A stretch of 64,000 nt of DNA from Cetorhinus maximus (lineage: Eukaryota), in contig NC_135911.1 in assembly GCF_964194155.1 (NCBI RefSeq), forward strand, positions 11,222,001 through 11,286,000. Direction: 5' to 3'. The notes beneath the pieces are model-generated. The model was not told the origin of the DNA. It did no database searches and was given only the letters and a program-made list of their open reading frames with translations. This document shows, one piece after another, positions 1,710 through 62,250 of this stretch (the stretch's first letter is position 1; the number at the start of each line of letters is the position of its first letter). Both the position numbers and the translations under genes were made by a program.

Positions 1710-1749
1710 ATGCAGGCTTTCCTCTTCACCCTGCTCCTGGGAGCAGCAG
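1710..1749 (+). pseudogene. Orphan exon 1 of the protease with intact promoter and splice donor; no exons 2-5 before the next promoter
   Basis: [14 protein letters not shown]|GT, TATATAAA at 1653-1660. Followed by L2 and the 37-bp array, then the upstream module of copy A. Confidence 0.8.
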
Positions 1750-4837: not shown

Positions 4838-7800
4838 ATGCAAGCTTTCCTCTTCACCCTGCTCCTGGGAGCAGCAGGTATGATCACAGATATACTGAAA
4901 TGTGTGTGTGGGGGTCCACAAGCGTGGCTGTTTGTCTGGCAATGTCTGCTCTCCCTGGCTACCCATCCCCATTCCTTTCCCTGGCAACAGGCTGAGACTG
5001 AACCTGTCAGCTTGTAACCTCGGGGTCACATTTGAGCCCCAGATTTGCTCACTGTCAAACCATTCCTATTTCCCCCTCCGCAACATTGCCCAGCTTCACC
5101 CCGACCCCGTCTCCTCTCATCTCATCTACTGCTGAAACCCTCATCCAATCCAGCATTGCCCCCAGATGCGACTATTCTGACAAATCCCTGACTGTTCTCC
5201 CACGTTCCACCCTCCGTAAACTTGAGGTCATCCGAACCTCTGCTGCCCGTGCCTTAACTCGCACTGAGTCCCACTCAACTATCATCTCTGGTGCTCGCTG
5301 ACCAGCATTGGCTCCTGGTTAGCAACATATTGATTTTAAAATTCCACCAGCCCCTACAACCCTCCCTATCTCTGTAACCTCCTCCAGCCCCTACAACCCT
5401 CCCTATCTCTGTAACCACCTCCAGCGCATACAATCCTCCCTATCTCTGTAACCACCTCCAGCCCCTACAACCCTCCCTATCTCTGTAACCTCCTCCAGCC
5501 CCTACAACCCTCCCTATCTCTGTAACCACCTCCAGCGCATACAATCCTCCCTATCTCTGTAACCACCTCCAGCGCCTACAACCCTCACTATCCCTGTAAC
5601 CTCCTCCAGCCCCTACAACGCTCCCTATCTCTGTAACCTCCTCCAGCCCCTACAACCCTCCCTATCTCTGTAACCTCCTCCAGCACCTAGAACACTCCCT
5701 ATCTCTGTAACGTCCTCCAGCCCCTACAATTGTCCCTACCTCTGTAACCTCCTCCTGCCTCTACAACTCTCCCTACCTCTGTAACCTCCTCCAGCGCCTA
5801 CAACCCTCCCTATCCCTCTCACCTTCTCCAGCCCCTACAAACCTCCCTATTTCTGTAACCTCCTCCAGTCCCTACAACCCTCTGAGATCTCTGCTCTCCT
5901 CCAATTCCGGCCTCTTGACCATCCCCCGATTCCCATCGCTGCACCATTGGCAGCCGTGCCATCAGCTGCCTGGGGCCCTGAGCCCTGAAAATCCCTCCCT
6001 AAACCTCTCCACCTCTCTCTGTCTCTCTTTCTCACTCTCTCCTTCCCCCTTTAAAACGCTCCTAAAATCCAATCGTTTTGACTAAACCTTTGGCTGCCTG
6101 TCCCTGATGTCTCTTTATGTGACTCAGCGAGATACTTTGTTTGATAATCAACCCTGTGAAGCTGTTTCATTATGTTAAAGGCACTATAGAAACGTAAGAT
6201 TTTGTTGTTGCTAAGTGTCTGAGTGTGTGCAAATGCAAGCGTGTGTATGTGTTTGAGTGAAAGTTTTTGTGTGTGTGTGTCTGAGTGTGTATGTGTACAT
6301 GTACAGGTGTGGGAGTGTGTATTTGTGTGTGTGTGTGATTGTGTGGCTGAGTGTAAGTGTGTTTTTGTGTGTGGGTGTGTGTGACTGTGGGTGTGTGTGA
6401 CTGTGTGTATTTGTGTGCGTGTGTATTTCTGTGCGCGTGTATTTGTGTGCATATGTATTTGGGTGCGTGTGTGTGTAAGTAAGTGTGTGTGTTTGTGTGT
6501 GTGTGAATGTGTGTAAGCGTGTATGTGTGTGTGACTGCGGAAGTGTGTGTGTGATTTTGTGTAAGCGTGTATGAGTGTGTGACTGCGTAAGTGTGTGTGT
6601 GGTTGTGTGTGATTGTGTGTAAGTGTGTGTGTGTGACTGTGGGTGCGTGTGTCAAATCAGACGATGACCCTCACTCTCTGTATTTTTCTTTACTCAGCTG
6701 CTGCTCCTGCGAATGTGAAGATCATTAACGGCCAGAATTGTTATCCTCACTCTATGCCCTGGCAGGTTTTTCTGACCTATAATGGGAATCGCTGGTGTGG
6801 GGGCTCCCTGATAAACCACCACTGGATAGTGTCAGCTGCTCATTGTTACCAACCGTAAGTCCAGAGATGATCACAGCAACAAGCAAACATAAAAACATAC
6901 ACAAACATACAAACATACACAAACATACAAACATACACAAACATACACAAACATACATACAAACATACACAAACATACAAATGTCCACAAACATACATAC
7001 AAACATACACAAACATACATAAACATACAAACACTCACAAACATACATACAAACATACACAAACATGCATAAACATACCAACACTCACAAACATACATAC
7101 ATTCATACACAGACATACATAAACATACAATGACCCACAAACATACACAAGCATGCTTACATGCAAACATACACAAACATACACACACTCAAACATACAT
7201 ACAAGCGTACACAAACATACAAACATACATACAAACATACACAAACATACATACAAACATACACAAATATACACAAACATACATACAAAAACACACGAAT
7301 ACACACAAACATACATACAAGCATACACAAACATACGAACACTCACAAACACACAAACACACACAAACATACAAACATAGACAAACATACATACAAACAT
7401 ATACAATCATACACAGATCAACACTGAATGATACAGAGACAAAAACATGAACATACAGATGTCCAAGCATACAATCTTACAGCGCACACATATAAACAAT
7501 GATGGAGTAATAAGGGTTCTCTTGCAGACATTTCTCATACTTTCTGTATCACAATATGTGCACTCACCCTCCAAAAACGCTATATAGAAACTTCATCATC
7601 CCCCAAAAACCTCCAGAAAAAGGCTAAACTCCAGATGACTAATGCCCGGGTAGTGAGGGGGCAGTTTGACACTGGCCTCCTCTACATTCTTTTCTTATTC
7701 TTGTTGGCAAGAAGGACCCAAAATTAATGATTAAAACAGGGGTCAAACTGAAAGGAAGGAGCAAGCCAAAGAGGAGCAGCAGATACAAAACACGGGCTTC

Positions 7801-10800
7801 AGCCTCAGCTGGAGGATTGTGTCCAGCTCTGGGCACCACACTTTAGGAAGGATGTGAAGGCATTAGAGAGAGAGCAGTAAGGATTCATGAGAATGGATCC
7901 AGGGATGAGGAACAACAGTTAATGTGGAGAGAGTGGAGGAGCTGGGACTGTTCTCCTTGGGGAATATGTATGTTTGTGTATGTTTGTATGTTTGTGTATG
8001 TTTGTATGTTTGTGTATGTTTGTGTATGTTTGTGTATGTTTGTATGTTTGTGTATGTTTGTATGTTTGTGTATGTTTGTATGTTTGTGTATGTTTGTATG
8101 TTTGTGTATGTTTGTATGTTGGTGTATGTTTGTATGTTGGTGTATGTTTGTATGTTTGTGTATGTTTGTATGTATGTCTCTCCTTGAAGAAGAGAAGGTC
8201 GAGAGGAGGTTTGATAGAGGGGTTCAAAATCACGAGGGGTCTGGACTGGGTAGAGAGGGAGAAACCGTTCCCATTGGGGGGAAGGATCGAGAACCAGAGG
8301 GGCACAGATTTAAGGGGATTAGTAAAAGAAGCAACGGAGACATGAGGAGAAACTTTTTCACCCTGCGAGTGGCTAGGATCTGGAATGCACTGCCCGAGAG
8401 TTTGAGGGAGGCAGGTTCAATCGAGGCTTTCGAAAGGGAATCAGGTTGTTATCCGAAGGGGAAACATTTGCAGGGTTACGGGTAAAGGACAGGGGGAATG
8501 GGTTTAGGTGAGTTGCTCTTTCAGAGAGCAGACAGGGACACGACAGGCTGAATGGCCTCAAGCTGCGCGATAACCATTCGGCGGCTTCCGGGAAACAGGA
8601 AGTGGGGAAATGACAGTGTTGAGCACTTCTCCTCTGATTGCCCAGGGCCAGCATCCTCGTGGCGCATCTGGGCGAACACAACCTCTCTCACCCCGAGGGG
8701 ACGGAGCAGCGAATCCAAGTGGCCTCGGCCATCGTGCACCCCAGGTTCGACCACATGAACTTCAACAACGACATCATGCTGCTCAAACTCGCCTGGCCCG
8801 CCAAATTCGACCGGTACGTCAGACCCATCCCTCTGCCCAGCCAGTGTGCCACAGCCGGGACTGGATGCATCACCTCTGGCTGGGGGAATCTCGTGATTAA
8901 CGGAGGTAAGGAGGGCCGGGGTGGTGAGGGGTTGGTGGAGGGGGGAGCAGGAAGGCGAGTTGGGGTTGGGGGCTGTTGGTTAGAACCTGAATGAATACTG
9001 CGCTGGTTTGAGGGGATGGTGGGTGGGAGGGCAGTGGGGGGTGTTGGAATGTGCGATCAAGCAATAATACTTCACTTTCCAGGCATAACTGAAATGTAGA
9101 CATCACTGCTCCCTGGAGACCTGTCCCAGCTTTGGAGACAATTGCAGAGATTTACTAGAAATGTGCCGGCTCTTTGAAGGATCTATCTAATGAGTCCCCA
9201 CTCTCCCCCTGCTCTTTCCCACATAGCCCTATAATTTCCCTCCCTTCAAGTATTTCTCCAATTCCCCCTTTTGGAAGTTCCTATTGAATCTGCTTCCACC
9301 GCCCTTTCAGGCAGCGCCTTCCAGATCACAACAACTCGCTGTGTCCAAAAAAATAATTCTCCTCATCTCCCCCTCTGGTTCTTTTCCCGATTCTCTTCAA
9401 TCTGTGTCCCTCTGGTTACCGACCCTCCTGCCGCTGGAAACACTTTCTCCTTATTGACTCTATCCAAACCCCTCATGGTTTTGAACATCTCGATTCAATC
9501 TCCCCCTTAACCTTCTCTGCTCTAAGGAGAACAATCCCAGCTTCTCCAGTCTCTCCACATTAGTCCCAAAACCTGTGCTCACAGCCCCACACCCAGACCC
9601 AATTAAGCTTGATTTTAGCAATAACACCTTTGTTTTAAAATCCCTCCATGCCTTTTCCCTCCCTATCTTTGTAACCTCCTCCAGCCCCTACAACCATCCT
9701 GATCTCTGTAACCTCCTCAAACCCTACAACCCTATCTCTGTAACCTCCTCCAGCCCCTACAACCACATCTCTGTAACCTCCTCAAGCCCCTACAACCCCA
9801 TCCCTGTAACCTCCTCAAGCCCCTACAACCATCCTGATTTCTGTAAACTCCTCAAGCCCTACAACCCTATCGCTGTAACCTCCTCCAGCCCCAACAAGCC
9901 CATCTCTATAACCACCTCCAGCCCCTACAACCCTGCCGATCTCTGTAACCTCCTCCAACCCCTACCACAATCCCTATCTCTGTAACCTACTCCAGCCCCT
10001 CCAAATAATCCTATCTCTGTAACCTCCTCCAGCTCCTACAACCCTCCCTATCTCTGTAAACTCCTCGAGCCCCAACAACCCTGCTTTTCTCTGTAACCTC
10101 CTCCAGCCCCAACAACCCTCCTGATCTCTGTAACCTCCTCAAGCCCTACAACCACATCTCTGTAACCTCCTCAAGCCACTACAAACATCATGATCTCTGT
10201 AACCTCCTCGAGCCCTACAACCCTATCTCTGTTACCTCCTCCAGTCCCTACAACCCCATCTCTATAACCTCCTCCAGCCCCTACAACCCTCCATATCTCT
10301 GTAACGTCCTCCAACCCCTACCACACTCCCTATCTCTGTAACCTACTCCAGCCCCTACAACCCTGCCAATCTCTGTAAACTCCTCCCACCCCTACAACCC
10401 TCCCTTTCTCTGTAACCTACTCGAAACCCTACAATCCTCCGAGATCTCTGCGCTCCTCCAATTCCAGCCTCATGAGCATCCCCCGATTCCCATCGCTCCA
10501 CCCTTGGCGGCCGTGCCTTCAGCTGCCTGGGGCCCTACGCTCTGGAATTCCCTCCCTAAACCTCTCCACCTCTCTCTCTTTCTCCCCCTTTAAAATACTC
10601 CTTAAAACGTCCCCTTTAACTGAGCTTTGGGTCATCTGTCCCTAATATCTCCTTATGTAGCCCGATGCCAAATTTAGCTTGTTCATGCTCTTATGAAGCA
10701 GCTTGGGATGTTTTATAAAGTTAACAGTTCTATATAAATTCAAGTATGCTGTTGTTATTAAGGTGGTGTTAATAGCAGTCTACGCGTGGGCACAATGAGT

Positions 10801-12491
10801 TATTCTGCTGCTGATTAAGTTGGCCTGTCCCTTTAACAGGGCAACCTCTCATTGATCGAAATGCTGAGCTCATTCACAGTTCAATTGCCGATTGGCAAAT
10901 GCCTGTCAATTTAATCCCTTCTACCTCAAGGGATGTTCCTCTGCCAATTGAACATTGTCAGTTCTCTAGACGGCCACCAGTGTTTCATATTGAGCTCTCC
11001 TTCTCCTGGCCACGAGGTTCTTCACCACCCTGACTACAGGAACCCAACATCTCTTTGTGTCTTGGCGAGCAGACCTGGATTCAATGCCCAGTGTATGCTT
11101 TAACCAGAGCTCTGTACACAACACTCAGTAAGCAAGACTATTGATTAAGTCGCTTGCACGTGGGAGGAGGAGACTCACGTTTGGATCGGACTGTGCTGAC
11201 TCATTTCTTTCCCCATCAGTACAATATCCCGAAGTCCTACAGTGCCTGAATCAGCCCATCCTGCCTGATGCTGATTGCCGCAAAGCTTATCCACCCTACT
11301 TCACGGACAACATGTTCTGCTCAGGATACCTGGAGGGAGGACAGAGCACATGCCAGGTAAGAGTGGCCCGACAGGGTGAGACCGAATGAATCAAACCATG
11401 AGCGATAGGAAGTGTCTCAAGCTGAGAGACAGAGGTTACCTCTCCCTGAGGGATGGGGAATGACTGAATTTGATGGTGCGTAGGAGCAGGCAATTTGGCC
11501 CCTTTATCCCTCTGACAGTGCAGCGCTCCCTCAGTATGACCATCTGACAGTGCAGCACTCCCTCGGTACTGACCATCCGACAGTGCAGCGCTCCCTCAGT
11601 ATGACCCTACGACAGTGCACCGCTCCCTCAGTACATACCCTCTGACAGTGCAGCACTCCCTAAGTATTACCCTCCGACAGAGCAGCGTTCCCTCAGTATG
11701 ATCCTACGACAGTGCAGCACTCCCTAAGTATGACCCTCTGACAGTGCAGCACTCCGTCGGTATGATCCTACGACAGTGCATCTCTACCACATTACTGATC
11801 CTTTGGCACTGCAGCGCACCCTCAGTACAGACGCTCCGACAGTGCAGTGCTCCCTCAGTACTGACCCTCCGACAGTGCAGCACTCCCTTAGTAAGGAACC
11901 TCTGACAATGCAGCACTCCCTCAGTACTGACCCTCTGACAGTGCAGCACTCCCTCAGCACTGACCCTCCGACAGTGCTGCGCTCCCTCAGCACTGACCCT
12001 CCGACAGTGCAGCGCTCCCTCAGCACTGACCCTCCGACAGTGCAGCACTCCCTCAGTACTGACCCTCCGACAGTGCAGCACTCCCTCAGTACTGACCCTC
12101 CGACAGTGCAGCGCTCCCTCAGCACTGACCCTCCGACAGTGCAACGCTCCCTCAGCACTGAGCCTTGTCCTTTGGGTCTCTGGACTGGTACTCAGACCCG
12201 TAACCTCCTGATTGTGCGGACAGAGTACCACCCAGCGAGCTCGGGTCCCACACCGGGATCCCGGGGGAGCTACGGATGACCATCCGATTATCACTTTGTC
12301 TATCTCACTCCGAATTACACTCCATGTCTTTTTTGCTGCAGGGAGACTCAGGGGGACCTGTGGTCTGTAATGGGGAGCTACAAGGCATTACTTCCTGGGG
12401 ATACGACTGTGCTATGGAGGATCATCCCAGCGTCTTTGTGAAAGTTTGTAACTACAACAACTGGATCCAAAGGGTCATGGCTGAAAACTGA
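4838..12491 (+). CDS. Trypsin-family (S1A) serine protease zymogen, copy A; join(4838..4877,6698..6854,8646..8905,11220..11356,12342..12491), 247 aa
   Basis: GT-AG introns, exons 40/157/260/137/150 nt, phases 1,2,1,0 as in vertebrate trypsinogen. Signal peptide [15 protein letters not shown], mature N-terminus IING, motifs [26 protein letters not shown], 12 Cys. TATA upstream and AATAAA downstream. Confidence 0.95.
4935..6212 (+). mobile_element. L2-type LINE 3' part in intron 1 with an internal 37-bp expansion (also in copies B, C, D; 5' half only in the orphans)
   Basis: Degenerate ORF2 C-terminus (LRNIAQL, AETLI, CDYS, SAAR, HWL...DFKI) and tail AAAGGCACTATAGAAACGTAAG-TTGTTGTTG. Confidence 0.75.
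6215..6652. repeat. Compound (TG)n-rich microsatellite before exon 2 of A (longer homologs 17515-18610, 39668-40848, 49417-50512)
   Basis: Interrupted TG dinucleotide tract. Confidence 0.9.
6880..7415. repeat. (ACAAACATAC)-type CA-rich microsatellite after exon 2 of A (homologs 18840-19510, 41078-41500, 50740-51415)
   Basis: Tandem 8/10-bp units. Confidence 0.9.
7805..8565 (+). mobile_element. CR1 3' fragment in intron 2 split by a TATGTTTG microsatellite (homologs about 19900-20525, 41890-42500, 51800-52430)
   Basis: [11 protein letters not shown]...[32 protein letters not shown]; 3' end GGCTGAATGGCCT. Confidence 0.8.
9150..9562 (-). mobile_element. CR1 3' fragment in intron 3 (homologs about 21110-21520, 43085-43495, 53010-53425)
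   Basis: Minus-strand [20 protein letters not shown] seen in the copy-B homolog ORF 21421..21681. Confidence 0.7.
9600..10757 (+). mobile_element. L2-type LINE 3' fragment in intron 3 with a 37-bp expansion (homologs about 21565-22365, 43540-44495, 53465-54855)
   Basis: KSLH...[37-mer array]...[22 protein letters not shown] remnants and TATATAAATTCAAGTATGCTGTTGTT tail. Confidence 0.7.
11510..12240 (-). mobile_element. Degenerate tRNA-derived SINE in intron 4 with an expanded 33-bp internal unit
   Basis: Reverse complement of 12160-12240 has A/B-box-like head GCTCGCTGGGTGGTACTCT...GGTTACGGGTCTGAGTACC leading into TGAGGGAGTGCTGCACTGTCGGAGG units. Confidence 0.55.
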
Positions 12492-14489: not shown

Positions 14490-17400
14490 ATGCAGGCTTT
14501 CCTCTTCACCCTGCTCCTGGGAGCAGCAGGTATGATCACAGTTATACTGAAATGTGTGTGTGGGGGTCCACAAGCGTGGCTGTTTGTCTGGCAATGTCTC
14601 CTCTCCCTGGCTACCCATCCCCATTCCTTTCCCTGGCAACAGGCTGAGACTGACAGGCAGGGCTGTCCTCTCTCGCCTGTCCTTTTCGTGTGCTGCATAG
14701 AACCCTTTGCCGAGTCCATCAGGAAGGATCCGGGCATAAGAGGAGTGACGATCCCAGGCAGCGGAGGCACTCAGGTAAAAGCCTCCCTGTACATGGACGA
14801 CGTCGCCGTCTTCTGCTCGGATCCTCTGTCGGTGCGCAGACTGATGCACGTCTGCGACCAGTTCGAACTGGCCTCGGGAGCCAAGGTAAATCGTGGGAAG
14901 AGCGAGGCCATGTTCTTTGGGAACTGGGCTGACCGATCCTTTGTCCCCTTCACTGTCAGGGCTGACGGCCTGAAGGTGCTGGGGATATGGTTCGGAGGGA
15001 CTGGCGTTAGAAACTGGAAGGAGCGAGTGGCTATGGTGAAAAGGAAACTGGGCATGTGGGAGCGACGCTCCCTCTCCATTGCGGGTAAGAACCTGGTCAT
15101 CAGGTGTGAGGTACTCTCGCTGTTGCTGTACGTGGCGCAGGTCTGGCCCATTCCACACTCCTGCGCGATGGCGATCACTCGAGCCATCTTCCGCTTTATC
15201 TGGAGGTCGAAAATGGATCGTGTCTGCAGGGACGCGATGTACAAGCCTCTAGATAAAGGGGGAAAAAACGTGCCCAACATCGCCCTCATACTGATGGCCA
15301 CCTTTGTGTGTGGCTGCATCAAGCGGTGCGTAGACCCTCAGTACGCAAACACCAAGTGTCACTACGTGCTGAGGTTCTACCTGTCCCCGGTGTTGCGAAG
15401 GATGGGTCTGGCCACGCTGCCGCGGAACGCTCCAAGTAGTTGGACCGTGCCGTACCACCTGTCCCTGGTGGAAAAATTTATGCAGAAAAACACCTTTGAC
15501 CACAAGTCCATCAGGCAGTGGTCAGCACGTAACGTCCTAGAGGCCCTGAGGGATAAGGAGAGGGTGGACCCTGTGGGATGGTTCCCCGAGCAGACTGTCA
15601 AAGTCATTTGGCAGAATGCCTCATCGCCAGAACTTTCCAACAAGCACCAAGACGTAGCTTGGCTGGTGGTGAGAAAGGCCCTCCCCGTCAGATCCTTCCT
15701 ACACGCCAGGAGTCTCACCCCCTCTGCACGATGCCCTCGAGGTGGCTGTGGTGGGGAAGAGACCGTTGTTCACCTCCTTGTGGATTGTGCCTTTGCAAAG
15801 AAAGTCTGGAGAGAGATGCAGTGGTTGCTGTCGAGGTTCATCCTGAGCAGTTCTGTGACACAGGACTCTGTGCTCTACGGGCTGTTCCCAGGGACACACA
15901 CCGAGACAAACATCGACTGCAGCTGGAGGATCATCAACTCGGTGAAAGACGCGCTTTGGTCTGCCCGAAACTTGTTGGTCTTCCAGCACAAAGAGTTGTC
16001 CCCGACCGATTGTTGCGGACTGGCACAATCCAAAGTCCAGGACTACGTGCTGAGGGACACACTAAAGCTTGGGGCAGCTGCCGCAAAGGCGCAATGGGGA
16101 AGGGTCGCTGTCTAAGACCTTTCTACCACAGCGCACCGAGAGACTGGGAACTGTTTAGAGCCCCTCGGGCTGTACAGATCAAAATGAAAGGCTGTAAATG
16201 ATTGTAATATTGTTTGTACTGATGCACCTGGTGATACATTTTGTAAAAGTTTAACCTGGATTGTACCCTTGTAATGTTGTTTTTGAAATGGTTTTGAATG
16301 TGATTGAAGATTTTTTATGAATAAAGTATATTTTTACAAAAAAAAAACAGGCTGAGACTGAACCTGTCAGCTTGTAACCTCGGGGTCACATTTGACCCCC
16401 AGATTTGCTCACTGTCAAACCATTCCTATTTCCACCTCCGCAACATTGCCCAGCTTCACCCCGACCCCGTCTCCTCTCATCTCATCTACTGCTGAAACCC
16501 TCATCCAATCCAGCATTGCCCCCAGATGCGGCTATACCGACAAATCCCTGACTGTTCTCCCACGTTCCACCCTCCGTAAACTTGAGGTCATCCGAACCTC
16601 TGCTGCCCGTTTCTTAACTCGTACTGAGTCCCACTCACCTATCATCTCTGGTGCTCGCTGACCAGCATTGGCTCCTGGTTAGCATCATATTGACTTTTAA
16701 ATTCCTCCAGCCCCTACAACCCTCCCTATCTCTGTAACCTCCTCCAGCCCCTACAACCCTCCCTATCTCTGTAACCTCCACCAGCCCCCTCAACCCTCCC
16801 TTTCTCTGTAACCTCCTCCAGCCCCTACAACACTCCCTATCTCTGTAACCTCCTCCAGCACCTACAACCCTCCCTATCTCTGTAACCTCCTCCAGCCGCT
16901 ACAACCCTCCCTTTCATTGTAACCTCCTTCAGCGCCTACAACCCTCCCTATCCCTGTAACCTCCTCCAGCCCCTACAACACTCCCTATCTCTGTAACCTC
17001 CTCCAGCACCTACAACCCTCCCTATCTCTGTAACCTCCTCCAGCCGCTACAACCCTCCCTTTCATTGTAACCTCCTTCAGCGCCTACAACCCTCCCTATC
17101 CCTGTAACCTCCTCCAGGCCCTAAAAACCTCCCTATCTCACCTCCCTATCTCTGTAACCTCCTCCAGTCCCTACGACCCTCTGAGATCTCTGCTCTCCTC
17201 CAATTCCGGCCTCTTGACCATCCCCCGAATCCCATCGCTCCACCATTGGCGGCCGTGCCTTCAGCTTTCTGGGGCCCTAAGCTCTGAAAATCCCTCCCTA
17301 AACCTCTCCACCTCTCTCTCTCTCTCTTTCTCACTCTCTCCCTCCTCCTTTAAAACGCTCTTAAAATCCAATCATTATGACTAAACATTTGGCTGCCTGT

Positions 17401-20400
17401 CCCTGATGTCTCTTTATGTGACTCAGCGAGATACTTTGTTTGATAATCAACCCTGTGAAGCTGTTTCATTATGTTAAAGGCACTATAGAAACGTAAGATG
17501 TTGTTGTTGCTAAGTGTCTGTGTGTGTGCATATGCGAGCGTGTGTATGTGTGTGAGTGTATGTATTTATGTGTGTGTGTCTGTGTATGTGTACATGTACA
17601 GGTGTGGATGTGTGTATTTGTGTGTGTGTATGAGATTGTGTGTATGTGTTTGTGAGAGAATGGATGTGTGTTTGTGTGTGCGTGTACATTTGTGAGTGTG
17701 TGTGTGTTTGTGTGCGTGTGTCTGAATGTAAGTATGTATGTGTGTGTATGAGTGAGTGTCCATGTGTCTATGTGTATGAGTGTGTGTATATGTGTGTGTG
17801 TCCGTGTATGTGCCTGCACGTGTGAGACTGGGTGTGTGCGTTTGTGTGTGAGTGTGATTGTGTCATTATTTGTGTGTGACTGTCACTCTGTGTGTGTAAG
17901 TGTGTGTATTTGTGTGTTTGTGACTGTGTGTAACTGTGTGTATTTGTGTGTGTGTGACAGTGTGTAAGTGTATGTATTGTGAGTGGGTGTGTCTCAGAGT
18001 GTGTATGTGAGTGTGACTGTGTGTGTGCGTGTGTGTGTGTTAACTTATGTGTGAGTGTGACTGTGTGTGTTTGTCTGTGTGTAAGTGTGTGTATTTGCAC
18101 GTGTGTGTGACTGCGTGCATGTGTGTATGTAGTTGTGTGTGTTTGTGTCTTTGTGTGAATGTGTCTGTGTGACTGTGTGTGTGCGACTGTGTGTGAGTGT
18201 GAGTATTTGTGTGTACGTGATTGCGTGCCTGTGCGTGTGTGTGTGACTGTGTGTATGTGTGTGACTGTGTGTATGTGTGTGACTGTCTGTGTGACTGTGT
18301 GTGTGTGTGACTGTGTGTGTGTGTGACTGTGGGTGTGTGCGTATTTGTGTGTCTGTGCGTATTTGTGTGTCTGTGCGTATTTGTGTGACTGTGCGTATTT
18401 GTGTGAGTGTGTGTATTTGTGTGACTGCGTGCATGTGTGTGACTGTGTGTATGTGTGTGTGTGTAAGTATGTGTGTGATTTTGTAAGTGTGTGTATTTGT
18501 GTTTGTGTGATTGTGTGTAAGCGTGTATGTGTGTGTGACTGCGTAAGTGTGTGTGTGTTTGTGTGTGATTGTGTGTAAGTGTGTGTGTGTGACTGTGGGT
18601 GCGTGTGTGCAATCAGATGATGACCCTCACTCTCTGTATTTTTCTTTACTCAGCTGCTGCTCCTGCGAATGTGAAGATCATTAACGGCCAGAATTGTTAT
18701 CCTCACTCTATGCCCAGGCAGGTTTTTCTTACCTATAATGGGAATCGCTGGTGTGGGGGCTCCCTGATAAACGACCGGTGGATAGTGTCAGCTGCTCATT
18801 GTTACCAACCGTAAGTCCAGAGATGATCACAGCAACAAGCAAACATAAAAACATACACAAACATACAAACATACACAAACATGCAAATGTCCACAAACAT
18901 AAATACAAACATACACAAACAAACATACATAAACATACAGACACTCACAAACATACACACAAACATACATAAACATACAAACACTCACAAACATACATAC
19001 ATACATACACAGACATACAATCACAAACATACACAAGCATCCATACATGCAAACAAAGACAAACATACAAACATACATACATAAACACACAGACACTCAC
19101 AAACATACATACAAACATACATAAACATACAAACACTCACAAACTTACATACATACACAGACATACACCCACAAACATACACAAGCATGCATACATGCAT
19201 AGACAAACATACAAACATACTCAAACATACATACAAGCGTACACAAACATACAAACATACATACAAGCATGCACAAACATGCAAACATGCACAAACGTAC
19301 GAACACTCACAAACATGCACAAATATAGAAAAATAGACAAACATACATAAAAACATACACAAATGTACACAAACATACAAACACACACAAATATAGACAA
19401 ACATACATACAAGCATACACAAACATACGAACACTCACAAACACACACAAACACACACAAACATACAAACATAGACAAACATACATACAAACATATACAT
19501 TCATACACAGATCAACACTGAATGATACAGAGACAAAAACATGAACATACAGATGTCCAAGCATACAATCTTACAGCGCACACATATAAACAATGATGGA
19601 GAAATAAGGGTTCTCTTGCAGACATTTCTCATACTTTCTGTATCACAATATGTGCACTCACCCTCCAAAAACGCTATATAGAAACTTCATCATCCCCCAA
19701 AAACCTCCAGAAAAAGGCTAAACTCCAGATGACTAATGCCCGGGTAGTGTGGGGGCAGTTTGACACTGGCCTCCTCTACATTCTTTTCTTATTCTTGTTG
19801 GCAAGAAGGACCCAAAATTAATGATTAAAACAGGGGTCAAAGTGAAAGGAAGGAGCAAGCCAAAGAGGAGCAGCAGATACAAAACACGGGCTTCAGCCTC
19901 AGCTGGAGGATTGTGTCCAGCTCTGGGCACCACACTTTAGGAAGGATGTGAAGGCATTAGAGAGAGAGCAGTAAGGATTCATGAGAATGGATCCAGGGAT
20001 GAGGAACATCAGTTAATGTGGAGAGAGTGGAGGAGCTGGGACTGTTCTCCTTGGGGAATATGTATGTTTGTATGTATGTTTGTGTATGTTTGTATGTTTG
20101 TGTATGTTTGTATGTTTGTGTATGTTTGTATGTATGTCTCTCCTTGGAGAAGAGAAGGTCGAGAGGAGGTTTGACAGAGGGGTTCAAAATCACGAGGGTT
20201 CTGGACTGGGTAGAGAGGGAGAAACCGTTCCCATTGGGGGGAAGGATCGAGAACCAGAGGGGCACAGATTTAAGGGGATTAGTAAAAGAAGCAACGGAGA
20301 CATGAGGAGAAACTTTTTCACCCTGCGAGTGGCTAGGATCTGGAATGCACTGCCCGAGAGTTTGAGGGAGGCAGGTTCAATCGAGGCTTTCGAAAGGGAA

Positions 20401-23400
20401 TCAGGTTGTTATCCGAAGGGGAAACATTTGCAGGGTTACGGGGAAAGGACAGGGGGGATGGGTTTAGGTGAGTTGCTCTTTCAGAGAGCAGACAGGGACA
20501 CGACGGGCTGAATGGCCTCCAGCTGCGCGATAACCATTCGGCGGCTTCCGGGAAACAGGAAGTGGGGAAATGACAGTGTTGAGCACTTCTCCTCTGATTG
20601 CCCAGGGCCAGCATCCTCGTGGCGCATCTGGGCGAACACAACCTCTCTCACCCCGAGGGGACGGAGCAGCGAATCCAAGTGGCCTCGGCCATCGTGCACC
20701 CCAGGTTCGACCACATGAACTTCAACAACGACATCATGCTGCTCAAACTCGCCTGGCCCGCCAAATTCGACCGGTACGTCAGGCCCATCCCTCTGCCCAG
20801 CCAGTGTGCAACAGCCGGGACTGGATGCATCACCTCTGGCTGGGGGACACTCGTGATTAACGGAGGTAAGGAGGGCCGGGGTGGTGAGGGGTTGGTGGAG
20901 GGGGGAGTGGGAAGGCGAGTTGGGGTTAGGGGGCTGTTGGTTAGAACCTGAATGAATACTGCGCTGGTTTGAGGGGATGGTGGGTGGGAGGGCAGTGGGG
21001 GGTGTTGGAATGTGCGATCAAGCAATAATACTTCACTTTCCAGGCATAACTGAAATGTAGTCATCACTGCTCCCTGGAGACCTGTCCCAGCTTTGGAGAC
21101 AATTGCAGAGATTTACTAGAAATGTGCCGGCTCTTTGAAGGATCTATCTAATGAGTCCCCACTCTCCCCCTGCTCTTTCCCACATAGCCCTATAATTTCC
21201 CTCCCTTCAAGTATTTCTCCAATTCCCCCTTTTGGAAGTTCCTATTGAATCTGCTTCCACCGCCCTTTCAGGCAGCGCCTTCCAGATCACAACAACTCGC
21301 TGTGTCCAAAAAAATAATTCTCCTCATCTCCCCCTCTGGTTCTTTTCCCGATTCTCTTCAATCTGTGTCCCTCTGGTTACCGACCCTCCTGCCGCTGGAA
21401 ACAATTTCTCCTTATTGACTCTATCCAAACCCCTCATGATTTTGAACATCTCGATTCAATCTCCCCCTTAACCTTCTCTGCTCTAAGGAGAACAATCCCA
21501 GCTTCTCCAGTCTCTCCACATTAGTCCCAAAACCTGTGCTCGCAGCCCCACACCCATTCCAAACTAAGCTTGATTTTAGCAATAACACCTTTGTTTTTAA
21601 ATCCCTCCATGGCTTTTCCCTCCCTACCTTTGTAACCTCCTCCAGCCCCGACAAACATCCTGATCTCTGTAACCTCCTCAAGCCCTACAACCCTATCTCT
21701 GTAACTTCCTCCAGCCCCTACAACCACATCTCTGTAACCTCCTGAAGCCCCTACAACCATCGTGATCTCTGCAACCTCCTCGAGCCCTAAAACCCTATCT
21801 CTGTAACCTCCTCCGGCCCCTACAACCCCATCTCTATAACGTCCTCCAGCCCCTACAACCATTGCTATCTCTGTAACCTCCGCCAGCCCCTACCACACTC
21901 CCTATCTCTGTAACCTCCTCCAGCCCCTACAACCACCCTATCACTGTAACCTCCTCCAGCTACTACAACCCTCCCTATCTCTGTAAACTCCTCCCGCCCC
22001 TACAACCCTCACTTTCTCTGTAACCTCCTCCAAACCCTACAATCCTCCAAGATCTCTGCGCTCCTCCAATTCAGGCCTCTTGAGCATCCCCGATTCCCAT
22101 CGCTCCACCATTGGCGGCCGTGCCTTCAGCTGCCTGGTGCCCTAAGCTCTGGAATTCCCTCTCTAAACCTCTCCACCTCTCTTTCTTTCTCTTCCTTTAA
22201 AATACTCCTTAAAACGGACCCCTTTAACTGAGCTTTGGGTCATCTGTCCCTAATATCTCCTTATGTAGCCCGATGCCAAATTTAGCTTGTTCATGCTCTT
22301 ATGAAGCAGCTTGGGATGTTTTATAAAGTTAACAGTTCTATATAAATTCAAGTATGCTGTTGTTATTAAGGTGGTGTTAATAGCAGTCTACACATGGGCA
22401 CAATGAGTTATTCTGCTGCTGATTAAGTTGGCCTGTCCCTTTAACGGGGCAACCTCTCATTGATCGAAATGCTGAGCTCATTCAGAGTTCAATTGCCGAT
22501 TGGCAAATGCCTGTCAATTCAATCCCTTCTACCGCAAGGGATGTCAGCTGTGGCTCAGTTCATAGCACCCTCGCCGTTGAATCAGAGGGTTGTGGGTTCA
22601 TGTCCCACTCCCGGAAAACCAAGAACTGTGATTGTACTCGAAAGAGTTGCAATCTGTGACTGTTGGTAACTGGAAAGAGTTTCCACTGCCAATTGCACAT
22701 TGTCAGTTCTCTAGACGGCCACCAGTGTTTCATATTGAGCTCTCCTTCTCCTGGCCACGAGGTTCTTCGCCACCCTGACTACAGTAACCCAACATCTCTT
22801 TGTGTCTTGGCGAGCAGACCTGGATTCAATGCCCAGTGTATGCTTTAACCAGAGCTCTGTACACAACACTCAGTAAGCAAGACTATTGATTAAGTCGCTT
22901 GCACGTGGGAGGAGGAGACTCACGTTTGGATCGGACTGTGCTGACTCATTTCTTTCCCCTTCAGTACAATATCCCGAAGTCCTACAGTGCCTGAATCAGC
23001 CCATCCTGCCTGATGCTGATTGCCGCAAAGCTTATCCACCCTACTTCAAGGACAACATGTTCTGCTCAGGATACCTGGAGGGAGGACAGAGCACATGCCA
23101 GGTAAGAGTGGCCCGACAGGGTGAGACCGAATGCATCAAACCATGAGCAATAGGAAGTGTCTCAAGCTGAGAGACAGGGGTTACCTCTCCCTGAGGGATG
23201 GGGAATGTCTGAATTTGAGGGAGCGTAGGAGCAGGAGGAGGATATTTGGCCACTTTATCCCTCTGACAGTGCAGTACTCCCTCAGTATGACCCTCTGACA
23301 GTGCAGCGCTCCCTCAGTACTGACCCTCCAACAGTGCAGTGCTCCCTCAGTACTGACCCACCGACAGTTTACAGCTTCCTCAGTACTGACCCACCGACAG

Positions 23401-24082
23401 TGTACAGCTCCCTCAGTACTGACCCTCTGACAGAGCAGCACTCGCTCAATACTGACCCTCCGACAGTGCAGCGCTCCCTCAATACTGACCATCCGACAGT
23501 GCAGTTCTCCCTCAGTACTGACCCCCCGACAGTGCAGCGCTCCCTCAGTACTGACCCTCTGACAGTGCAGCACTCCCTCAGTACTGACCCTCTGACAGTG
23601 CAGCACTCTCTCAGTACTGACCCTCCGACAGTGCAGCACTACCTCTGTGCTGACCCTCCAACAGTGCAGCGCTCCCTCAGTACTGACCCTCTGATAGTGC
23701 AGCACTCCCTCAGTACTGACCCTACGACAGTGCAACGCTCCCTCAGCACTGAGCCTTGTCCTTTGGTTCTCTGGACAGAAACTCAGACCCGCAACCTCCT
23801 GATTGTGCGGACAGAGTACCACCCAGCGAGCTCGGGTCCCACACCGGGATCCCGGGGGAGCTAAGGATGACCATCCGATTATCACTTTGTCTACCTCACT
23901 CCGAATTACACTCCATGTCTTTTTTGCTGCAGGGAGACTCAGGGGGACCTGTGGTCTGTAATGGGGAGCTACAAGGCATTACTTCCTGGGGATACGACTG
24001 TGCTATGGAGGATCATCCCAGCGTCTTTGTGAAAGTTTGTAACTACAACAACTGGATCCAAAGGGTCATGGCTGAAAACTGA
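14490..24082 (+). CDS. Trypsin-family serine protease, copy B; join(14490..14529,18654..18810,20606..20865,22965..23101,23933..24082); W29R and a Tx1 insertion in intron 1
   Basis: Same exon sizes and splice sites as copy A, open frame, catalytic triad intact. PWQV changed to PRQV (AGG at 18716-18718). T>K in exon 4. Confidence 0.9.
14654..16345 (+). mobile_element. 5'-truncated Tx1/L1-group non-LTR retrotransposon (RT C-terminal half + CCHC zinc finger)
   Basis: RQGCPLSP and YMDD RT motifs, [19 protein letters not shown] knuckle, stop at 16115, AATAAA 16320-16325, oligo-A tail. 16-bp TSD AACAGGCTGAGACTGA at 14638-14653 and 16346-16361. Empty site in paralogs. Confidence 0.95.
22541..22612 (+). 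mobile_element. tRNA-SINE head fragment present only in copy B intron 3
   Basis: GTCAGCTGTGGCTCAGTT...GAATCAGAGGGTTGTGGGTTCATGTCCCACTCC with Pol III A/B-box-like motifs. Confidence 0.6.
23260..23751. repeat. 33-bp minisatellite (CAGTACTGACCCTCCGACAGTGCAGCACTCCCT)n, intron 4 of B
   Basis: Period 33; translates as [11 protein letters not shown]. Confidence 0.9.
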
Positions 24083-29702: not shown

Positions 29703-29742
29703 ATGCAGGCTTTCCTCTTCACACTGCTCCTGGGAGCGGCAG
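29703..29742 (+). pseudogene. Orphan exon 1 of the protease with intact promoter and donor
   Basis: ATG 29703, GT donor 29743, TATATAAA 29646-29653. Intron 1 is truncated at about 30150, where it joins a CR1. Confidence 0.8.
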
Positions 29743-34188: not shown

Positions 34189-34228
34189 ATGCAGGCTTTC
34201 CTCTTCACCCTGCTCCTGGGAGCGGCAG
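34189..34228 (+). pseudogene. Orphan exon 1 with mutated splice donor (GT>AT)
   Basis: GCGGCAG|ATATGA at 34229; TATA changed to TATATAAT; degenerate 21-bp VNTR; no downstream exons before the promoter of copy C. Confidence 0.85.
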
Positions 34229-38463: not shown

Positions 38464-41400
38464 ATGCAGGCTTTCCTCTTCACCCTGCTCCTGGGAGTGG
38501 CAGGTATGATCACAGATATACTGAAATGTGTGTGTGGGGGTCCACAAGCGTGGCTGCTTGTCTGGCAATGTCTCCTCTCCCTGGCTACCCATCCCCATTC
38601 CTTTCCCAGGCAACAGGCTGAGACTGAACCTGTCAGCTTGTAACCTCGGGGTCACATTTGACCCCCAGATTTGCTCACTGTCAAACCATTCCTATTTCCA
38701 CCTCCGCAACATTGCCCAGCTTCACCCCGACCCCGTCTCCTCTCATCTCATCTACTGCTGAAACCCTCATCCAATCCAGCATTGACCCCAGATGCGGCTA
38801 TTCCGACAAATCCCTGACTGTTCTCCCACGTTACACCCTCCGGAAACTTGAGGTCATCCGAACCTCTGCTGCCCGTGTCTTAACTCGCACTGAGTCCCAC
38901 TCACCTATCATCTCTGGTGCTCGCTGACCAGCATTGGCTCCTGGTGAGCAACATATTGATTTTAAAATTCCTCCAGCCCCTACAACCCTCCCTATCTCTG
39001 TAACCTCCTCCAGCGCGTACAACCCTCCCTATCTCTGGAACCTCCTCCAGCCGCTACAACAGTCCCTATCTCTGTAACCTCCTCCAGCCTCTACAACCCT
39101 CCCTATCTCTGTAACCTCCTCCAGCCCTCTCAACCCTCCCTATCTCTGTAACCTCCTCCAGCACCTACAACCCTCTCTATCTCTGTAACCTCCTCCAGCC
39201 CCTACAACCCTCCCTATCCTTGTAACCTCCTCCAGCGCCTACAACCCTCCCTATCCCTGTAACCTCCTCCAGGCCCTAAAAACCTCCCTATCTCACCTCC
39301 CTATCTCTGTAACCTCCTCCAGTCCCTACAACCCTCTGAGATCTCTGCTCTCCTCCAATTCCGGCCTCTTGACCATCCCCCGATTCCCATTGCTCCACCA
39401 TTGGCGGCCGTGCCATCAGCTGCCTGGGGCCCTAAACTCTGAAAATCCCTCCCTAAACCTCTCCACCTCTCTATGTCTCTCTTTCTCACTCTCTCCCTCC
39501 TCCTTTAAAACGCTCTTAAAATCCAATCATTATGACTAAACCTTTGGCTGCCTGTCCCTGATGTCTCTTTATGTGACTCAGCGAGATACTTTGTTTGATA
39601 ATCAACCCTGTGAAGCTGTTTCATTATGTTAAAGGCACTATAGAAACGTAAATGTTGTTTTTGCTAAGTGTCTGAGTGTGTGCATACGTGAGCGTGTGTA
39701 TGTGTGTGAGTGTATGTATTTGTGTGTGTGTATGTCATTATGTGTACATGTACAGGTGTGGGTGTGTGTATTTGTGTGTGTGTATGAGATTGTGTGTATG
39801 TGTTTGTGAGAGAATGGATGTGTGTTTGTGTGTGCGTGTACATTTGTGAGTGTGTGTGTGTTTGTGTGCGTGTGTCTGAATGTAAGTATGTACGTGCGTG
39901 TGTGAGTGAGTCTCCGTGTGTCTATGTGTATGAGTGTGTGTATTTGTGTGTGTGTATATGTGTGTGTGTCCGTGTATGTGCCTGCACGTGTGAGACTGGG
40001 TGTGTGTGTTTGTGTGTGAGTGTGATTGTGTCTTTATTTGTGTGTGACTGTGACTCTGTGTGTGTAAGTGTGTGTATTTGTATGTTTGTTACTGTGAGTA
40101 AATGTGTGTATTTGTGTGTGTGTGACAGTGTGTAAGTGTATGTATTGTGAGTGGGTGTGTCTCAGAGTGTGTATGTGTGTGTGACTGTGTGTGCGTGTGT
40201 GTGTGTTAATTTATGTGTGAGTGTGACTGTGTGTGTTTGTCTGTGTGTAAGTGTGTGTATTTGCACGTGTGTGTGACTGCGTGCATGTGTGTGTGTGTGT
40301 AGTTTGTGTTTGTGTCTTTGTGTGTATGTGTGTATTTATGTGTGTGTGTGACTGTGTGTGTGTGTGACTGTGTGTAAGTGTGAGTATTTGTGCGTATGTG
40401 ATTGCGTGCCTGTGCGTAAGTGTGTGTGTGTGTGTGTGTCACTGTCTGTGTGTGGGTGGGTGTGCGTGACTGAGTGTGTGCGTGACTGTGTGTGTGTGTG
40501 ACTGTGTGTGTGTGTGACTGTGTGTGTGTGTGTGACTGTGGGTGTGTGGGTGACTGTGGGTGTGTGTGTGACTGTGGGTGTGTGCGTATTTGTGTGCCTG
40601 TGCTTATTTGTGTGACTGTGCGTATTTGTGTGTATGTGCATAATTGTGTGACTGTGTGTATTTGTGTGACTGTGTACATGTGTGTATGTGTAGATATGTG
40701 TAAGTATGTGTGTGATTTTGTAAGTGTGTTTATTTGTGTGTGTGTGATTGTGTGTAAGCGTGTGTGTGTGTGTGACTGCGTAAGTGTGTGTGTGTTTGTG
40801 TGTGATTGTGTGTAAGTGTGTGTGTGTGTGACTGTGGGTGCGTGGGTGCAATCAGATGATGAACCTCACTCTCTGTATTTTTCTTTACTCAGCTGCTGCT
40901 CCTGCGAATGTGAAGATCATTAACGGCCAGAATTGTTATCCTCACTCTATGCCCTGGCAGGTTTTTCTGACCTATAATGGGAATCGCTGGTGTGGGGGCT
41001 CCCTGATAAACCACCAGTGGATAGTGTCAGCTGCTCATTGTTACCAACCGTAAGTCCAGAGATTATCTCAGCAACAAGCAAACATAAAAACATACACAAA
41101 CATACAAACATACACAAACATACAAATGTCCACAAACATACATACAAACATACACAAACAAACATACATAAACATACAGACACTCACAAACATACATACA
41201 AACATACATAAACATACAAACACTCACAAACCTACATACATACACATACATACAGTCACAAACATACACAAGCATCCATACATGCAAACATACCCAAACA
41301 TACAAATGTCCACAAATATACATACAAACATACTCAAACATGCATACAAGCATGCACAAACATACATACAAAAACACACGAATACACACAAACATACATA

Positions 41401-44400
41401 CAAGCATACACAAACATATGAACACTCACAAACACACACAAACAAACACAAACATAGAAACATAGACAAACATACATACAAACATATACAATCATACACA
41501 GATCAACACTGAATGATACAGAGACAAAAACATGAACATACAGATGTCCAAGCATACAATCTTACAGCGCACACATATAAACAATGATGGAGTAATAAGG
41601 GTTCTCTTGCAGACATTTCTCATACTTTCTGTATCACAATATGTGCACTCACCCTCCAAAAACGCTATATAGAAACTTCATCATCCCCCAAAAACCTCCA
41701 GAAAAAGGCAAAACTCCAGATGACTAATGCCCGGGTAGTGAGGGGGCAGTTTGACACTGGCCTCCTCTACATTCTTTTCTTATTCTTGTTGGCAAGAAGG
41801 ACCCAAAATTAATGATTAAAACAGGGGTCAAAGTGAAAGGAAGGAGCAAGCCAAAGAGGAGCAGCAGATACAAAACACGGGCTTCAGCCTCAGCTGGAGG
41901 ATTGTGTCCAGCTCTGGGCACCACACTTTAGGAAGGATGTGAAGGCATTAGAGAGAGAGCAGTAAGGATTCATGAGAATGGATCCAGGGATGAGGAACTT
42001 CAGTTAATGTGGAGAGAGTGGAGGAGCTGGGACTGTTCTCCTTGGGGAATATGTATGCTTGTATGTATGTTTGTGTATGTTTGTATGTTGGTGTATGTTT
42101 GTATGTATGTCTCTCCTTGGAGAAGAGAAGGTGGAGAGGAGATTTGATAGAGGGGTTCAAAATCACGAGGGGTCTGGACTGGGTAGAGAGGGAGAAACCG
42201 TTCCCATTGTGGGGAAGGATCGAGAACCAGAGGGGCACAGATTTAAGGGGATTAGTAAAAGAAGCAACGGAGACATGAGGAGAAACTTTTTCACCCTGCG
42301 AGTGGCTAGGATCTGGAATGCACTGCCCGAGAGTTTGAGGGAGGCAGGTTCAATCGAGGCTTTCGAAAGGGAATCAGGTTGTTATCCGAAGGTGAAACAT
42401 TTGCAGGGTTACGGGGAAAGGACAGGGGGGATGGGTTTAGGTGAGTTGCTCTTTCAGAGGGCCAACAGGGACACGACAGGCTGAATGGCCTCCAGCTGCG
42501 CGATAACCATTCGGCGGCTTCCGGGAAACAGGAAGTGGGGAAATGACAGTGTTGAGCACTTCTCCTCTGATTGCCCAGGGCCAGCATCCTCGTGGCGCAT
42601 CTGGGCGAACACAACCTCTCTCACCCCGAGGGGACGGAGCAGCGAATCCAAGTGGCCTCGGCCATCGTGCACCCCAGGTTCGACCACATGAACTTCAACA
42701 ACGACATCATGCTGCTCAAACTCGCCTGGCCCGCCAAATTCGACCGGTACGTCAGGCCCATCCCTCTGCCCAGCCAGTGTGCCACAGCCGGGACTGGATG
42801 CATCACCTCTGGCTGGGGGACACTCGTGATTAACGGAGGTAAGGAGGGCCGGGGTGGTGAGGGGTTGGTGGAGGGGGTAGCGGGAAGGCGAGTTGGGGTT
42901 GGGGGGCTGTTGGTTAGAACCTGAATGAATACTGCGCTGGTTTGAGGGGATGGTGGGTGGGAGGGCAGTGGGGGGTGTTGGAATGTGCGATCAAGCAATA
43001 ATACTTCACTTTCCAGGCATAACTGAAATGTAGTCAACACTGCTCCCTGGAGACCTGTCCCAGCTTTGGAGACAATTGCAGAGATTTACTAGAAATGTGC
43101 CGGCTCTTTGAAGGATCTATCTAATGAGTCCCCACTCTCCCCCCTGCTCTTTCCCACATAGCCCTATAATTTCCCTCCCTTCAAGTATTTCTCCAATTCC
43201 CCCTTTTGAAAGTTCCTATTGAATCTGCTTCCACCGCCCTTTCAGGCAGCGCCTTCCAGATCACAACAACTCGCTGTGTGAAAAAAATAATTCTCCTCAT
43301 CTCCCCCTCTGGTTCTTTTTCCGATTCTCTTCAATCTGAGTCCCTCTGGTTACCGACCCTCCTGCCGCTGGAAACAGTTTCTCCTTATTGACTCTATCCA
43401 AACCCCTCATGGTTTTGAACATCTCGATTCAATCTCCCCCTTAACCTTCTCTGCTCTAAGGTGAACAATCCCAGCTTCTCCAGTCTCTCCACATTCGTCC
43501 CAAAACCTGTGCTCACAGCCCCACACCCAGACCCAATTAAGCTTGATTTTAGCAATAACACCTTTGTTTTTGAATCCCTCCATGGCTTTTCCCTCCCTAT
43601 CTTTGTAATCTCCTCCAGCCCCTACAACCAACCTGAACTCTGTAACCTCCTCCAGCCCCGACAACCCTATCTCTGTAACCTCCTCAAGCCCCTACAACCA
43701 TTGTGATCTCTGTAACCTCCTCGAGCCCCACAACCATATCTCTGTAACCTCCTCCTGCCCCTACAACCCCATCTCTATAACCTCCTCCAGCCCCTACAAC
43801 CCTCCCTATCTCTGTAACCTCCTCCAGCCCCTACCACACTCCCTATCTCTGTAAACTCCTCCAGCCCCTACAAACCACCCTATCTCAGTAACCTCCTCCA
43901 GCTCCTACAACCATCCCTATCTCTGTAAACTCCTCCCACGCCTACAAGCCTCCCTATCTCTTTAAACAACTCCAGCCCCTACAACCCTGCCTATCTCTGT
44001 AACCTCCTCCAGCCCCAACAACCCTCCCTATCTCAGTAACCTCCTCCAGCCCTTACCACCCTCCCTATCTCTCTAACCTCCTCCAGCCCCTACATCCCAC
44101 CCTTTCTCTGTCACCTCCACCAGCTCCTACAACCCTCCCTTTCTCTGTAATTTCCTCCAACCCCAACAATCCTCCGAGATCTTTGCTCTCCTCCAATTCC
44201 GGCCTCTTGACCATCCCCCGATTCCCATCGCTCCACCATTGGCAGCCGTGCCTTCAGCTGCCTGGGTCCCTAAGCTCTGGAATTCCCTCCCTAAACCTCT
44301 CCACCTCTCTCTCTTTCTCCCCCTTTAAAATACTCCTTAAAACGGACCCCTTTAACTGAGCTTTGGGTCATCTGTCCCTAATATCTCCTTATGTAGCCCG

Positions 44401-61772: not shown

Positions 61773-62004
61773 TGTCCAGTAATGGAGATTGATTGTCCAG
61801 TAATGGTGATTGATTGTCCAGTAATGGAGATTGATTGTCCAGTAATGGTGATTGATTGTCCAGTAATGGTGATTGATTGTCCAGTAATGGAGATTGATTG
61901 TCCAGTAATGGAGATTGATTGTCCAGTAATGGTGATTGATTATCCAGTAATGGTGATTGATTGTCCAGTAATGGTGATTGATTGTCCAGTAATGGTGATT
62001 GATT
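61773..62004. repeat. 21-bp VNTR x11
   Basis: Tandem 21-mers. Confidence 0.9.
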
Positions 62005-62210: not shown

Positions 62211-62250
62211 ATGCAGGCTTTCCTCTTCACCCTGCTCCTGGGAGCGGCAG
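62211..62250 (+). CDS. Exon 1 (signal peptide) of a further protease copy E; the rest of the gene, if present, lies beyond the window
   Basis: ATGCAGGCTTTC...GCGGCAG|GTATGA, TATAAA at 62156-62161, followed by the usual intron-1 L2 and a 37-bp array running to the window end. Confidence 0.7.

Follow-up and report, generated by a model that had tools for sequence, protein, structure and literature searches.

The conversion of trypsin into chymotrypsin is a classic problem in protein engineering. Trypsinogens have five coding exons and 12 cysteines in the mature chain, and chymotrypsinogen and proelastase are activated by trypsin. Elastase 2 is likewise a digestive zymogen activated by trypsin and has Ser189, the primate-restricted KLK3 has Thr190, Thr213 and Ser226, and D189S trypsin is a poor enzyme. 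As reported in the portion of PMC12461433 available to us, D189S by itself fails to make trypsin chymotrypsin-like; loop swaps are needed and Tyr172 matters. The available portion of PMC3014083 describes KLK3 as a prostate-expressed Ser189 enzyme with the kallikrein 99-loop and chymotryptic activity on Tyr, Phe or Gln at P1, and KLK1 as an enzyme that retains Asp189 and binds Lys/Arg with Thr190 and Ser226, P1 Lys being held mainly through these two residues. Some complement proteases keep basic specificity through charges relocated to position 226 (PMC7914634, partial text).

The protein encoded at the locus studied here shares with vertebrate pancreatic trypsins (PRSS1-3, rat trypsin II, fish trypsin 1/2) about 55% identity, the fold, 12 cysteines, the calcium-loop motif, five exons, Tyr172, Gln192 and loop lengths, but differs from them by Asp189Ser, Ser190Thr, Val213Thr, Gly219Asp, Gly226Ser and Tyr228Phe and by the absence of a DDDK propeptide. 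Like engineered rat trypsin D189S (PDB 1AMH) and the loop-swap chimeras, it places Ser189 on a trypsin scaffold; unlike them, the natural clade to which it belongs has fixed changes at 219 and 226 and mostly Ser183 (25 of 33 clade rows versus none of the Asp189 rows), while Tyr172 and trypsin loop lengths are kept. With KLK3 it has in common trypsin-family membership and Ser189, but there is no kallikrein 99-loop and no KLK ancestry in the tree. PDB 1BRU, which we take to be elastase 2 with a Leu/Met/Phe/Tyr preference, reads SFG...PSVF, and thus has the Gly216, Ser226, Phe228 and PSVF string of the query; pancreatic elastase 2 (CELA2A type) is nevertheless a separate lineage and scaffold, and the likeness is convergent, a functional resemblance only. 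We read the locus, with a probability of roughly two in three, as four intact members of a tandem array of a jawed-vertebrate Ser189/Ser226 trypsin paralog, whose product is likely a secreted digestive protease with predicted cleavage after Leu, Met, Phe or Tyr and not after Lys or Arg.

Four complete genes in the window

The window, that is, the whole stretch of 64,000 nt analysed, comprises positions 11222001-11286000 of contig NC_135911.1 (C34) of the basking shark genome. It holds four complete plus-strand genes, A to D, each with five coding exons of 40/157/260/137/150 nt, GT-AG introns in phases 1, 2, 1 and 0, an open frame of 247 residues, a TATA box and an AATAAA signal. In window coordinates the features are:

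1710..1749 (+), extra promoter and exon 1, 3 kb upstream of copy A exon 1
4838..12491 (+), copy A, complete gene: exons 4838-4877, 6698-6854, 8646-8905, 11220-11356, 12342-12491; TATA at -57, AATAAA 62 nt 3' of the stop
6698..6854 (+), copy A exon 2: non-acidic activation peptide; catalytic His57 at 6841-6843
8646..8905 (+), copy A exon 3: calcium-loop motif with NLS sequon; catalytic Asp102 at 8770-8772
11220..11356 (+), copy A exon 4: Ser189 at 11345-11347 (AGC), Thr190 at 11348-11350, Cys191, Gln192
12342..12491 (+), copy A exon 5: catalytic Ser195 at 12348-12350, Thr213, Gly216, Asp219 at 12405-12407, Ser226 at 12429-12431, Phe228
14490..24082 (+), copy B, complete gene: exons 14490-14529, 18654-18810, 20606-20865, 22965-23101, 23933-24082
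29703..29742 (+), extra promoter and exon 1, without exons 2-5 of its own
34189..34228 (+), extra promoter and exon 1, donor AT in place of GT
38464..46237 (+), copy C, complete gene: exons 38464-38503, 40893-41049, 42579-42838, 44956-45092, 46088-46237
48249..56698 (+), copy D, complete gene: exons 48249-48288, 50557-50713, 52508-52767, 55316-55452, 56549-56698
62211..62250 (+), promoter and exon 1, close to the window end

All four copies read GGQSTCQ followed by GDSGGP (copy D has YWEGG) and carry Ser189, Thr190, Gln192, Thr213, Gly216, Asp219, Ser226 and Phe228, with numbering anchored on a gap-free alignment to rat trypsin over the pocket part. The His57, Asp102 and Ser195 triad is present, as are the signal peptide, Ile16, Gly193, Asp194 and 12 cysteines in the mature chain, among them those of the six disulfides. 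A preliminary description of this DNA had reported the joint occurrence of Ser189, Thr190, Asp219 and Ser226 with an intact triad, 12 cysteines, the calcium loop and trypsinogen exon phases in four copies, and each of these sequence statements checked out. The copy B protein is identical to P0003, labelled 'anionic trypsin-2-like' of Cetorhinus maximus by NCBI (90% cluster, n = 27), and the mature part of copy D is identical to P0131.

The triad, the GDSGG motif and the two-barrel fold place the protein in the S1A chymotrypsin fold. Trypsin descent, as previously proposed, is borne out: the best 60 matches of the PDB sequence search are all trypsins, as are all of the 50 matches listed by the fold search (TM 0.83/0.91), and the gene, with its five coding exons and 12 mature cysteines, nests among trypsins in trees built without chymotrypsin or elastase rows. 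A representative-library search matched mostly unnamed multi-domain proteins and was left out of the comparison. Trypsin as an enzyme (EC 3.4.21.4) fits poorly, since the four copies have Ser189, Gly216 and Ser226 instead of Asp189 with Gly216 and Gly226, and the genome's copies have APANVK instead of an acidic DDDK-type activation peptide. Chymotrypsin (CTRB) is contradicted by Ser226, by Tyr172 in all 33 clade rows and by the trypsin-length loops, and CELA/CTRC orthology by the PDB matches and by the genome's separate elastase-like gene. Nor does the protein belong with the kallikreins: two KLK-like rows, on long branches, fall outside the clade, and there is no insertion near residue 99 relative to rat trypsin. 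PDB 1BRA ('relocating a negative charge in the binding pocket'), presumably the G226D mutant, has Asp at the position of the query's Ser226. The AlphaFold model, which includes the propeptide, is zymogen-like with pLDDT below 50 at residues 193-196 and 219-222, and therefore has no bearing on the shape of the S1 pocket.

Several smaller features of the window were also observed. In exon 2 of copy B (18654-18810), Arg replaces the conserved Trp of the P-W-Q motif at residue 35, a change that is possibly destabilising. The NLS glycosylation sequon of copy A exon 3 (8676-8687) lies inside the calcium-binding loop; it is present in the lamniform rows of the alignment and absent from its other rows. 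A 21-nt unit containing TGATTGATT forms a variable array ahead of each exon 1 examined. Tandem repeats of about 37 nt (C-rich) and of 33 nt form long arrays in introns and spacers across the window, for example at 57282-64000 and 11514-12140, and could act as seeds of unequal crossing-over. In a crude promoter scan over 1.2 kb upstream, TATA was present and no pair of E-box and TC-box stood out clearly. Coverage in one presumed-RNA run was confined to intron repeats, and exon read depth in one run was 197-486, which, without a single-copy control, gives no basis for copy number.

Amplification in the basking shark genome

In the genome, 30 of 58 exon-3 matches reach 88% identity (24 on NC_135911.1, six on contig C702), and 38 of 43 exon-4 matches reach 95% (29 and nine, respectively). 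The array spans about 590 kb of NC_135911.1, with 22 exon-3/exon-4 pairs no more than 4 kb apart; two of the 24 exon-3 matches and seven of the 29 exon-4 matches on this contig are without a partner within 4 kb. Exon-4 residues were read in the best-scoring 30 of the 38 matches, a set skewed to low divergence. All 30 have Ser189 and Thr190, and the sole amino-acid difference within the exon is Leu or Trp (11/19). Where exon 5 was in view, Ser226 is present at 26 of 26 loci and Asp219 at 25, with Asn at the other. Chance or an error in one copy is thereby ruled out as the source of the unusual pocket.

The window copies are 2-4% apart at silent sites, and amplification or homogenisation must therefore be recent, in line with the preliminary description, which had called the family recently amplified. 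Each pair differs by 8-15 coding nucleotides, and pN/pS between copies, resting on these few differences, is 0.22-0.62. Recent unequal crossing-over would have raised the dose to roughly 22-30 genes. There is a minor but real chance that part of this copy number is an assembly artefact, in which C702 is a second haplotype or partial copies have been counted. C702 is a contig of 163 kb that holds six of the 30 exon-3 and nine of the 38 exon-4 matches, and on NC_135911.1 two exon-3 and seven exon-4 matches lack a partner within 4 kb. Against such an artefact stand the coding differences between window copies, exon 4-5 introns that range from 441 to 1162 nt among array copies, the 22 pairs on a single contig and a parallel, similar array in the white shark. 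As C702 may be a second haplotype, 22-30 genes is a fair range; an artefact would lower the count and leave the finding unaffected.

Among the other five exon-4 matches, three belong to ordinary Asp189 trypsins and one to an Asp189 'trypsin-3-like' gene on C270; the fifth is a Glu189/Ala193/Ser226 gene that lies within the array. The genome searches score best candidates only, so the Asp189 trypsin genes number at least four. With about 30 copies against at least four Asp189 trypsins, the array is a candidate for a dosage effect on lamniform digestion. The genome also has its own, separate gene of the elastase family (L050), and the Ser189 enzyme therefore fills no empty niche, a point against our main reading. 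The only CADM-like match in the genome at E <= 1e-6 lies on NC_135911.1, about 1.8 Mb from the array.

Two loci depart from the general pattern. The odd paralog inside the array (L031, NC_135911.1:10932085-10939116) has Glu189/Thr190, Ala193 and Ser/Thr226, and its relatives include the first domain of P0002 and P0147; this type has Val at 193 in Heterodontus, and a residue other than Gly at this position could impair the oxyanion hole. Close to the end of C702, an inverted copy (L052, C702:139500-146500) retains a more ancestral set of residues in exon 3, which is 87-88% identical to that of the other copies, together with the propeptide APANVK that they share. In the white shark array (P0004 cluster, ten members; P0129), Gly189/Gly226 with His or Leu at 219 occurs besides a Ser189 copy with an acidic propeptide. 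The basking and white shark arrays have thus diverged in pocket type.

Distribution and descent of the Ser189 clade

Motif tables over the fetched matches revealed Ser189 together with Ser, Thr or Met at 226 in proteins of six other sharks (five genera), coelacanth, lungfish, bichir and paddlefish; in arapaima, arowana, tarpon, milkfish, herring, anchovy, pike, salmonids, cod and many percomorphs; and in newts, geckos, skinks and a girdled lizard. Database names for these proteins are trypsin, trypsin-like, serine protease 1-like or hypothetical, which confirms the earlier expectation that automatic annotation would call them trypsin. Many fish and reptile 'trypsin' labels would then be wrong (single clusters have 183 and 62 members), and such mislabelling bears on studies of fish digestion and aquaculture that read 'trypsin' expression. 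No Ser189-type member from a frog, turtle, alligator, bird, snake, mammal or carp/catfish was seen among the best 120 of 218 and the best 120 of 1339 matches, which hints weakly at loss of the gene in these groups.

A careful tree of 46 rows was computed under LG+G4, with no mixture model, after 12 chimeric and 17 redundant rows had been omitted and columns 189, 190, 219 and 226 masked; its root rests on one long amphioxus branch. All 18 non-chimeric rows of the Ser189 clade fall on one branch (support 100/98), nested in a 100/99 group with Asp189 'trypsin-3-like' genes and apart from ordinary and lamprey trypsins. These nearest relatives, found in sharks, amphibians, reptiles and ray-fins and as tandem neighbours in shark gene models (P0001), differ from the query in retaining Asp189, Gly219, Gly226 and an acidic propeptide. 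Cartilaginous and bony fishes separated over 400 million years ago. As one clade spans sharks to lizards, the loss of Asp189 likely predates that split. A bichir gene model fuses CADM4 exons to the Ser189 gene, and this adjacency, with the CADM-like match on the shark contig, makes synteny consistent with one shared clade. The pocket had been described as re-engineered; orthologs across jawed vertebrates rule out a recent, lineage-specific origin, and Ser189 with Ser or Thr at 226 is common to the group. The gene is thus an old paralog with a young expansion.

In a quick whole-length tree of 78 rows, the Ser189 rows split in two, with 12 clupeocephalan rows outside the main clade (P0046, P0176, P0178, P0180, P0182, P0183, P0187, P0188, P0195, P0198, P0215, P0224). 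When trees were re-run on halves cut at the exon 3/4 boundary, the front halves of these 12 were nearer ordinary fish trypsin (0.70 versus 0.57) and the back halves nearer the Ser189 clade (0.75 versus 0.62). The exon 4-5 tree, although it has few columns, unites all 33 clade rows on one branch (SH-aLRT 98) in the expected order of bichir, paddlefish, then teleosts. A second origin of Ser189 in clupeocephalans was rejected, as the half-gene trees show a chimera instead. From these trees, the likeliest account of the clupeocephalan genes is a fusion, by recombination within the cluster, of exons 2-3 from an ordinary trypsin with exons 4-5 from the Ser189 clade. The chimera is found in milkfish, herring, salmon, cod and perch-like fish, and suggests that exons 4-5 alone carry the pocket trait.

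The open-access full-text literature, searched also for clade-specific peptide motifs, yielded no description of the clade; older fish biochemistry and most subscription papers were beyond this search, and it is quite possible, if not our expectation, that the clade has already been described. The notothenioid gene tryp3, which adjoins antifreeze genes at the AFGP/TLP locus (PMC9985337 and PMC10256766, both in part), may be the teleost Ser189 gene, and the accessible part of a catshark pancreas transcriptome study lists 'Trypsin 1, 2 and 3' (PMC4362833). We tentatively propose, at somewhat less than even odds, that the clade is an undescribed pancreatic endopeptidase of jawed vertebrates older than the split of sharks and bony fishes: a natural conversion of trypsin to a chymotrypsin- or elastase-like enzyme that left the trypsin scaffold unmodified. 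On this view mammals, birds, frogs and zebrafish lost the gene, which would be why it was overlooked, most teleosts rebuilt it as a trypsin/Ser189 chimera, and in this shark it became the trypsin-family gene with the most copies. A Ser189 trypsin with trypsin loops and Tyr172, apparently kept throughout jawed-vertebrate history, and the teleost chimera would both offer natural test cases for the conversion problem. Interest would grow if the enzyme is efficient on hydrophobic P1 residues and the clade undescribed, and is tempered by the many precedents for specificity switches in S1A.

Predicted pocket, activation and alternative readings

Pocket residues were counted in 33 rows of the Ser189 clade and 42 Asp189 rows. 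Position 189 in the clade is Ser in 31 rows, Gly in one and Asp in one, and Asp in all 42 comparison rows; position 226 is Ser in 24, Thr in six, Met in one and Gly in two, and Gly in all 42. At 219 no clade row has Gly (Asp or Glu in 23; Gln, Asn, Ala, His, Lys or Trp in the other ten), versus Gly in 42 of 42 Asp189 rows. Gly216 (31/33), Tyr172 (33/33), Gln192 (29/33) and trypsin-length loops prevail in the clade. Thr190 is not fixed (Thr 14, Ser 18, Gly 1) and, with Thr213 and Phe228, is a subgroup trait that does not define the clade. Both exceptions at 189, a white-shark Gly189 sub-array and a newt gene with regained Asp189 (P0024), have Gly226. This co-variation of 189 and 226 suggests selection on pocket chemistry and not decay. 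The newt duplicates P0024 and P0025, both in the clade, have Gly192 and a one-residue insertion before Cys220.

The pocket is likely non-tryptic, as the preliminary description had proposed. With no acid at 189 or 226, an open Gly216 and a small Ser226, S1 would be uncharged and slightly narrowed, of the elastase-2/KLK3 type, and would take medium to large hydrophobic P1 residues. The gene, trypsin by descent, thus probably works like elastase 2 or PSA. Individual residues carry less of this argument than first suggested. Thr190 and Ser226, enlisted earlier in the specificity switch, are present, but by themselves make no switch, as KLK1 binds Lys/Arg with both (PMC3014083, available portion); Ser189, the supposed chymotrypsin-type switch, is also there, but D189S alone is not chymotrypsin-like (PMC12461433, available portion). 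Because D189S alone is insufficient and the clade keeps Tyr172, Gln192 and trypsin-length loops, the Phe/Tyr part of the prediction is uncertain.

The protein would be secreted as a zymogen and activated by cleavage between Lys and Ile16, with a pancreatic site suggested by ancestry. Copies in this genome have APANVK as propeptide and most of the white-shark array has ASANLK, whereas other sharks and fish have DEK, DER or EDR. According to the partial sources consulted, the acidic propeptide motif suppresses activation by trypsin, and its loss here therefore suggests downstream activation by trypsin. Ordinary trypsin would probably be the activator, as the amplified lamniform copies have lost the acidic residues before Lys. 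In lizards and newts the activation sites end in Asp (TED before IING, IND before VVNG; P0008, P0148-P0154, P0013, P0025, P0038, P0223), and trypsin or enteropeptidase would not cut them.

An active protease with a narrow or polar P1 preference (Gln, Asn or Tyr as in PSA, or acidic residues), acting on selected substrates or zymogens and not on bulk food protein, seems improbable. The pocket is lined with hydroxyls (Ser189, Thr190, Thr213, Ser226), KLK3 accepts Gln, and the Asp-ending sites of lizards and newts could reflect self-activation. However, to hold an acidic P1 the pocket has neither a basic residue at 226 nor His213, which serve this role in granzyme B and glutamyl endopeptidases; in shark and ray-fin members the activation site retains Lys/Arg; and a 20-30-fold amplification would better suit a bulk enzyme. 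Continued cutting after Lys/Arg, with Asp/Glu219 or backbone carbonyls and hydroxyls replacing Asp189, is still harder to sustain. An acidic 219 in 23 of the 33 rows is a possible compensating charge, KLK1 holds P1 Lys mainly by Thr190 and Ser226, and some complement proteases keep basic specificity by relocated charges, as the partial sources cited above describe. Yet ten rows have other residues at 219, the documented relocations target 226, which is Ser here, and KLK1 still has Asp189. We consider it very improbable that the protein is weakly active or non-catalytic, like the D189S mutant of trypsin, and kept for a binding role; the poor activity of D189S alone and the Arg of copy B in place of a conserved Trp point that way, but from sharks to lizards the clade conserves the triad, Gly193, Asp194, Ile/Val16 and a propeptide that can be cleaved.
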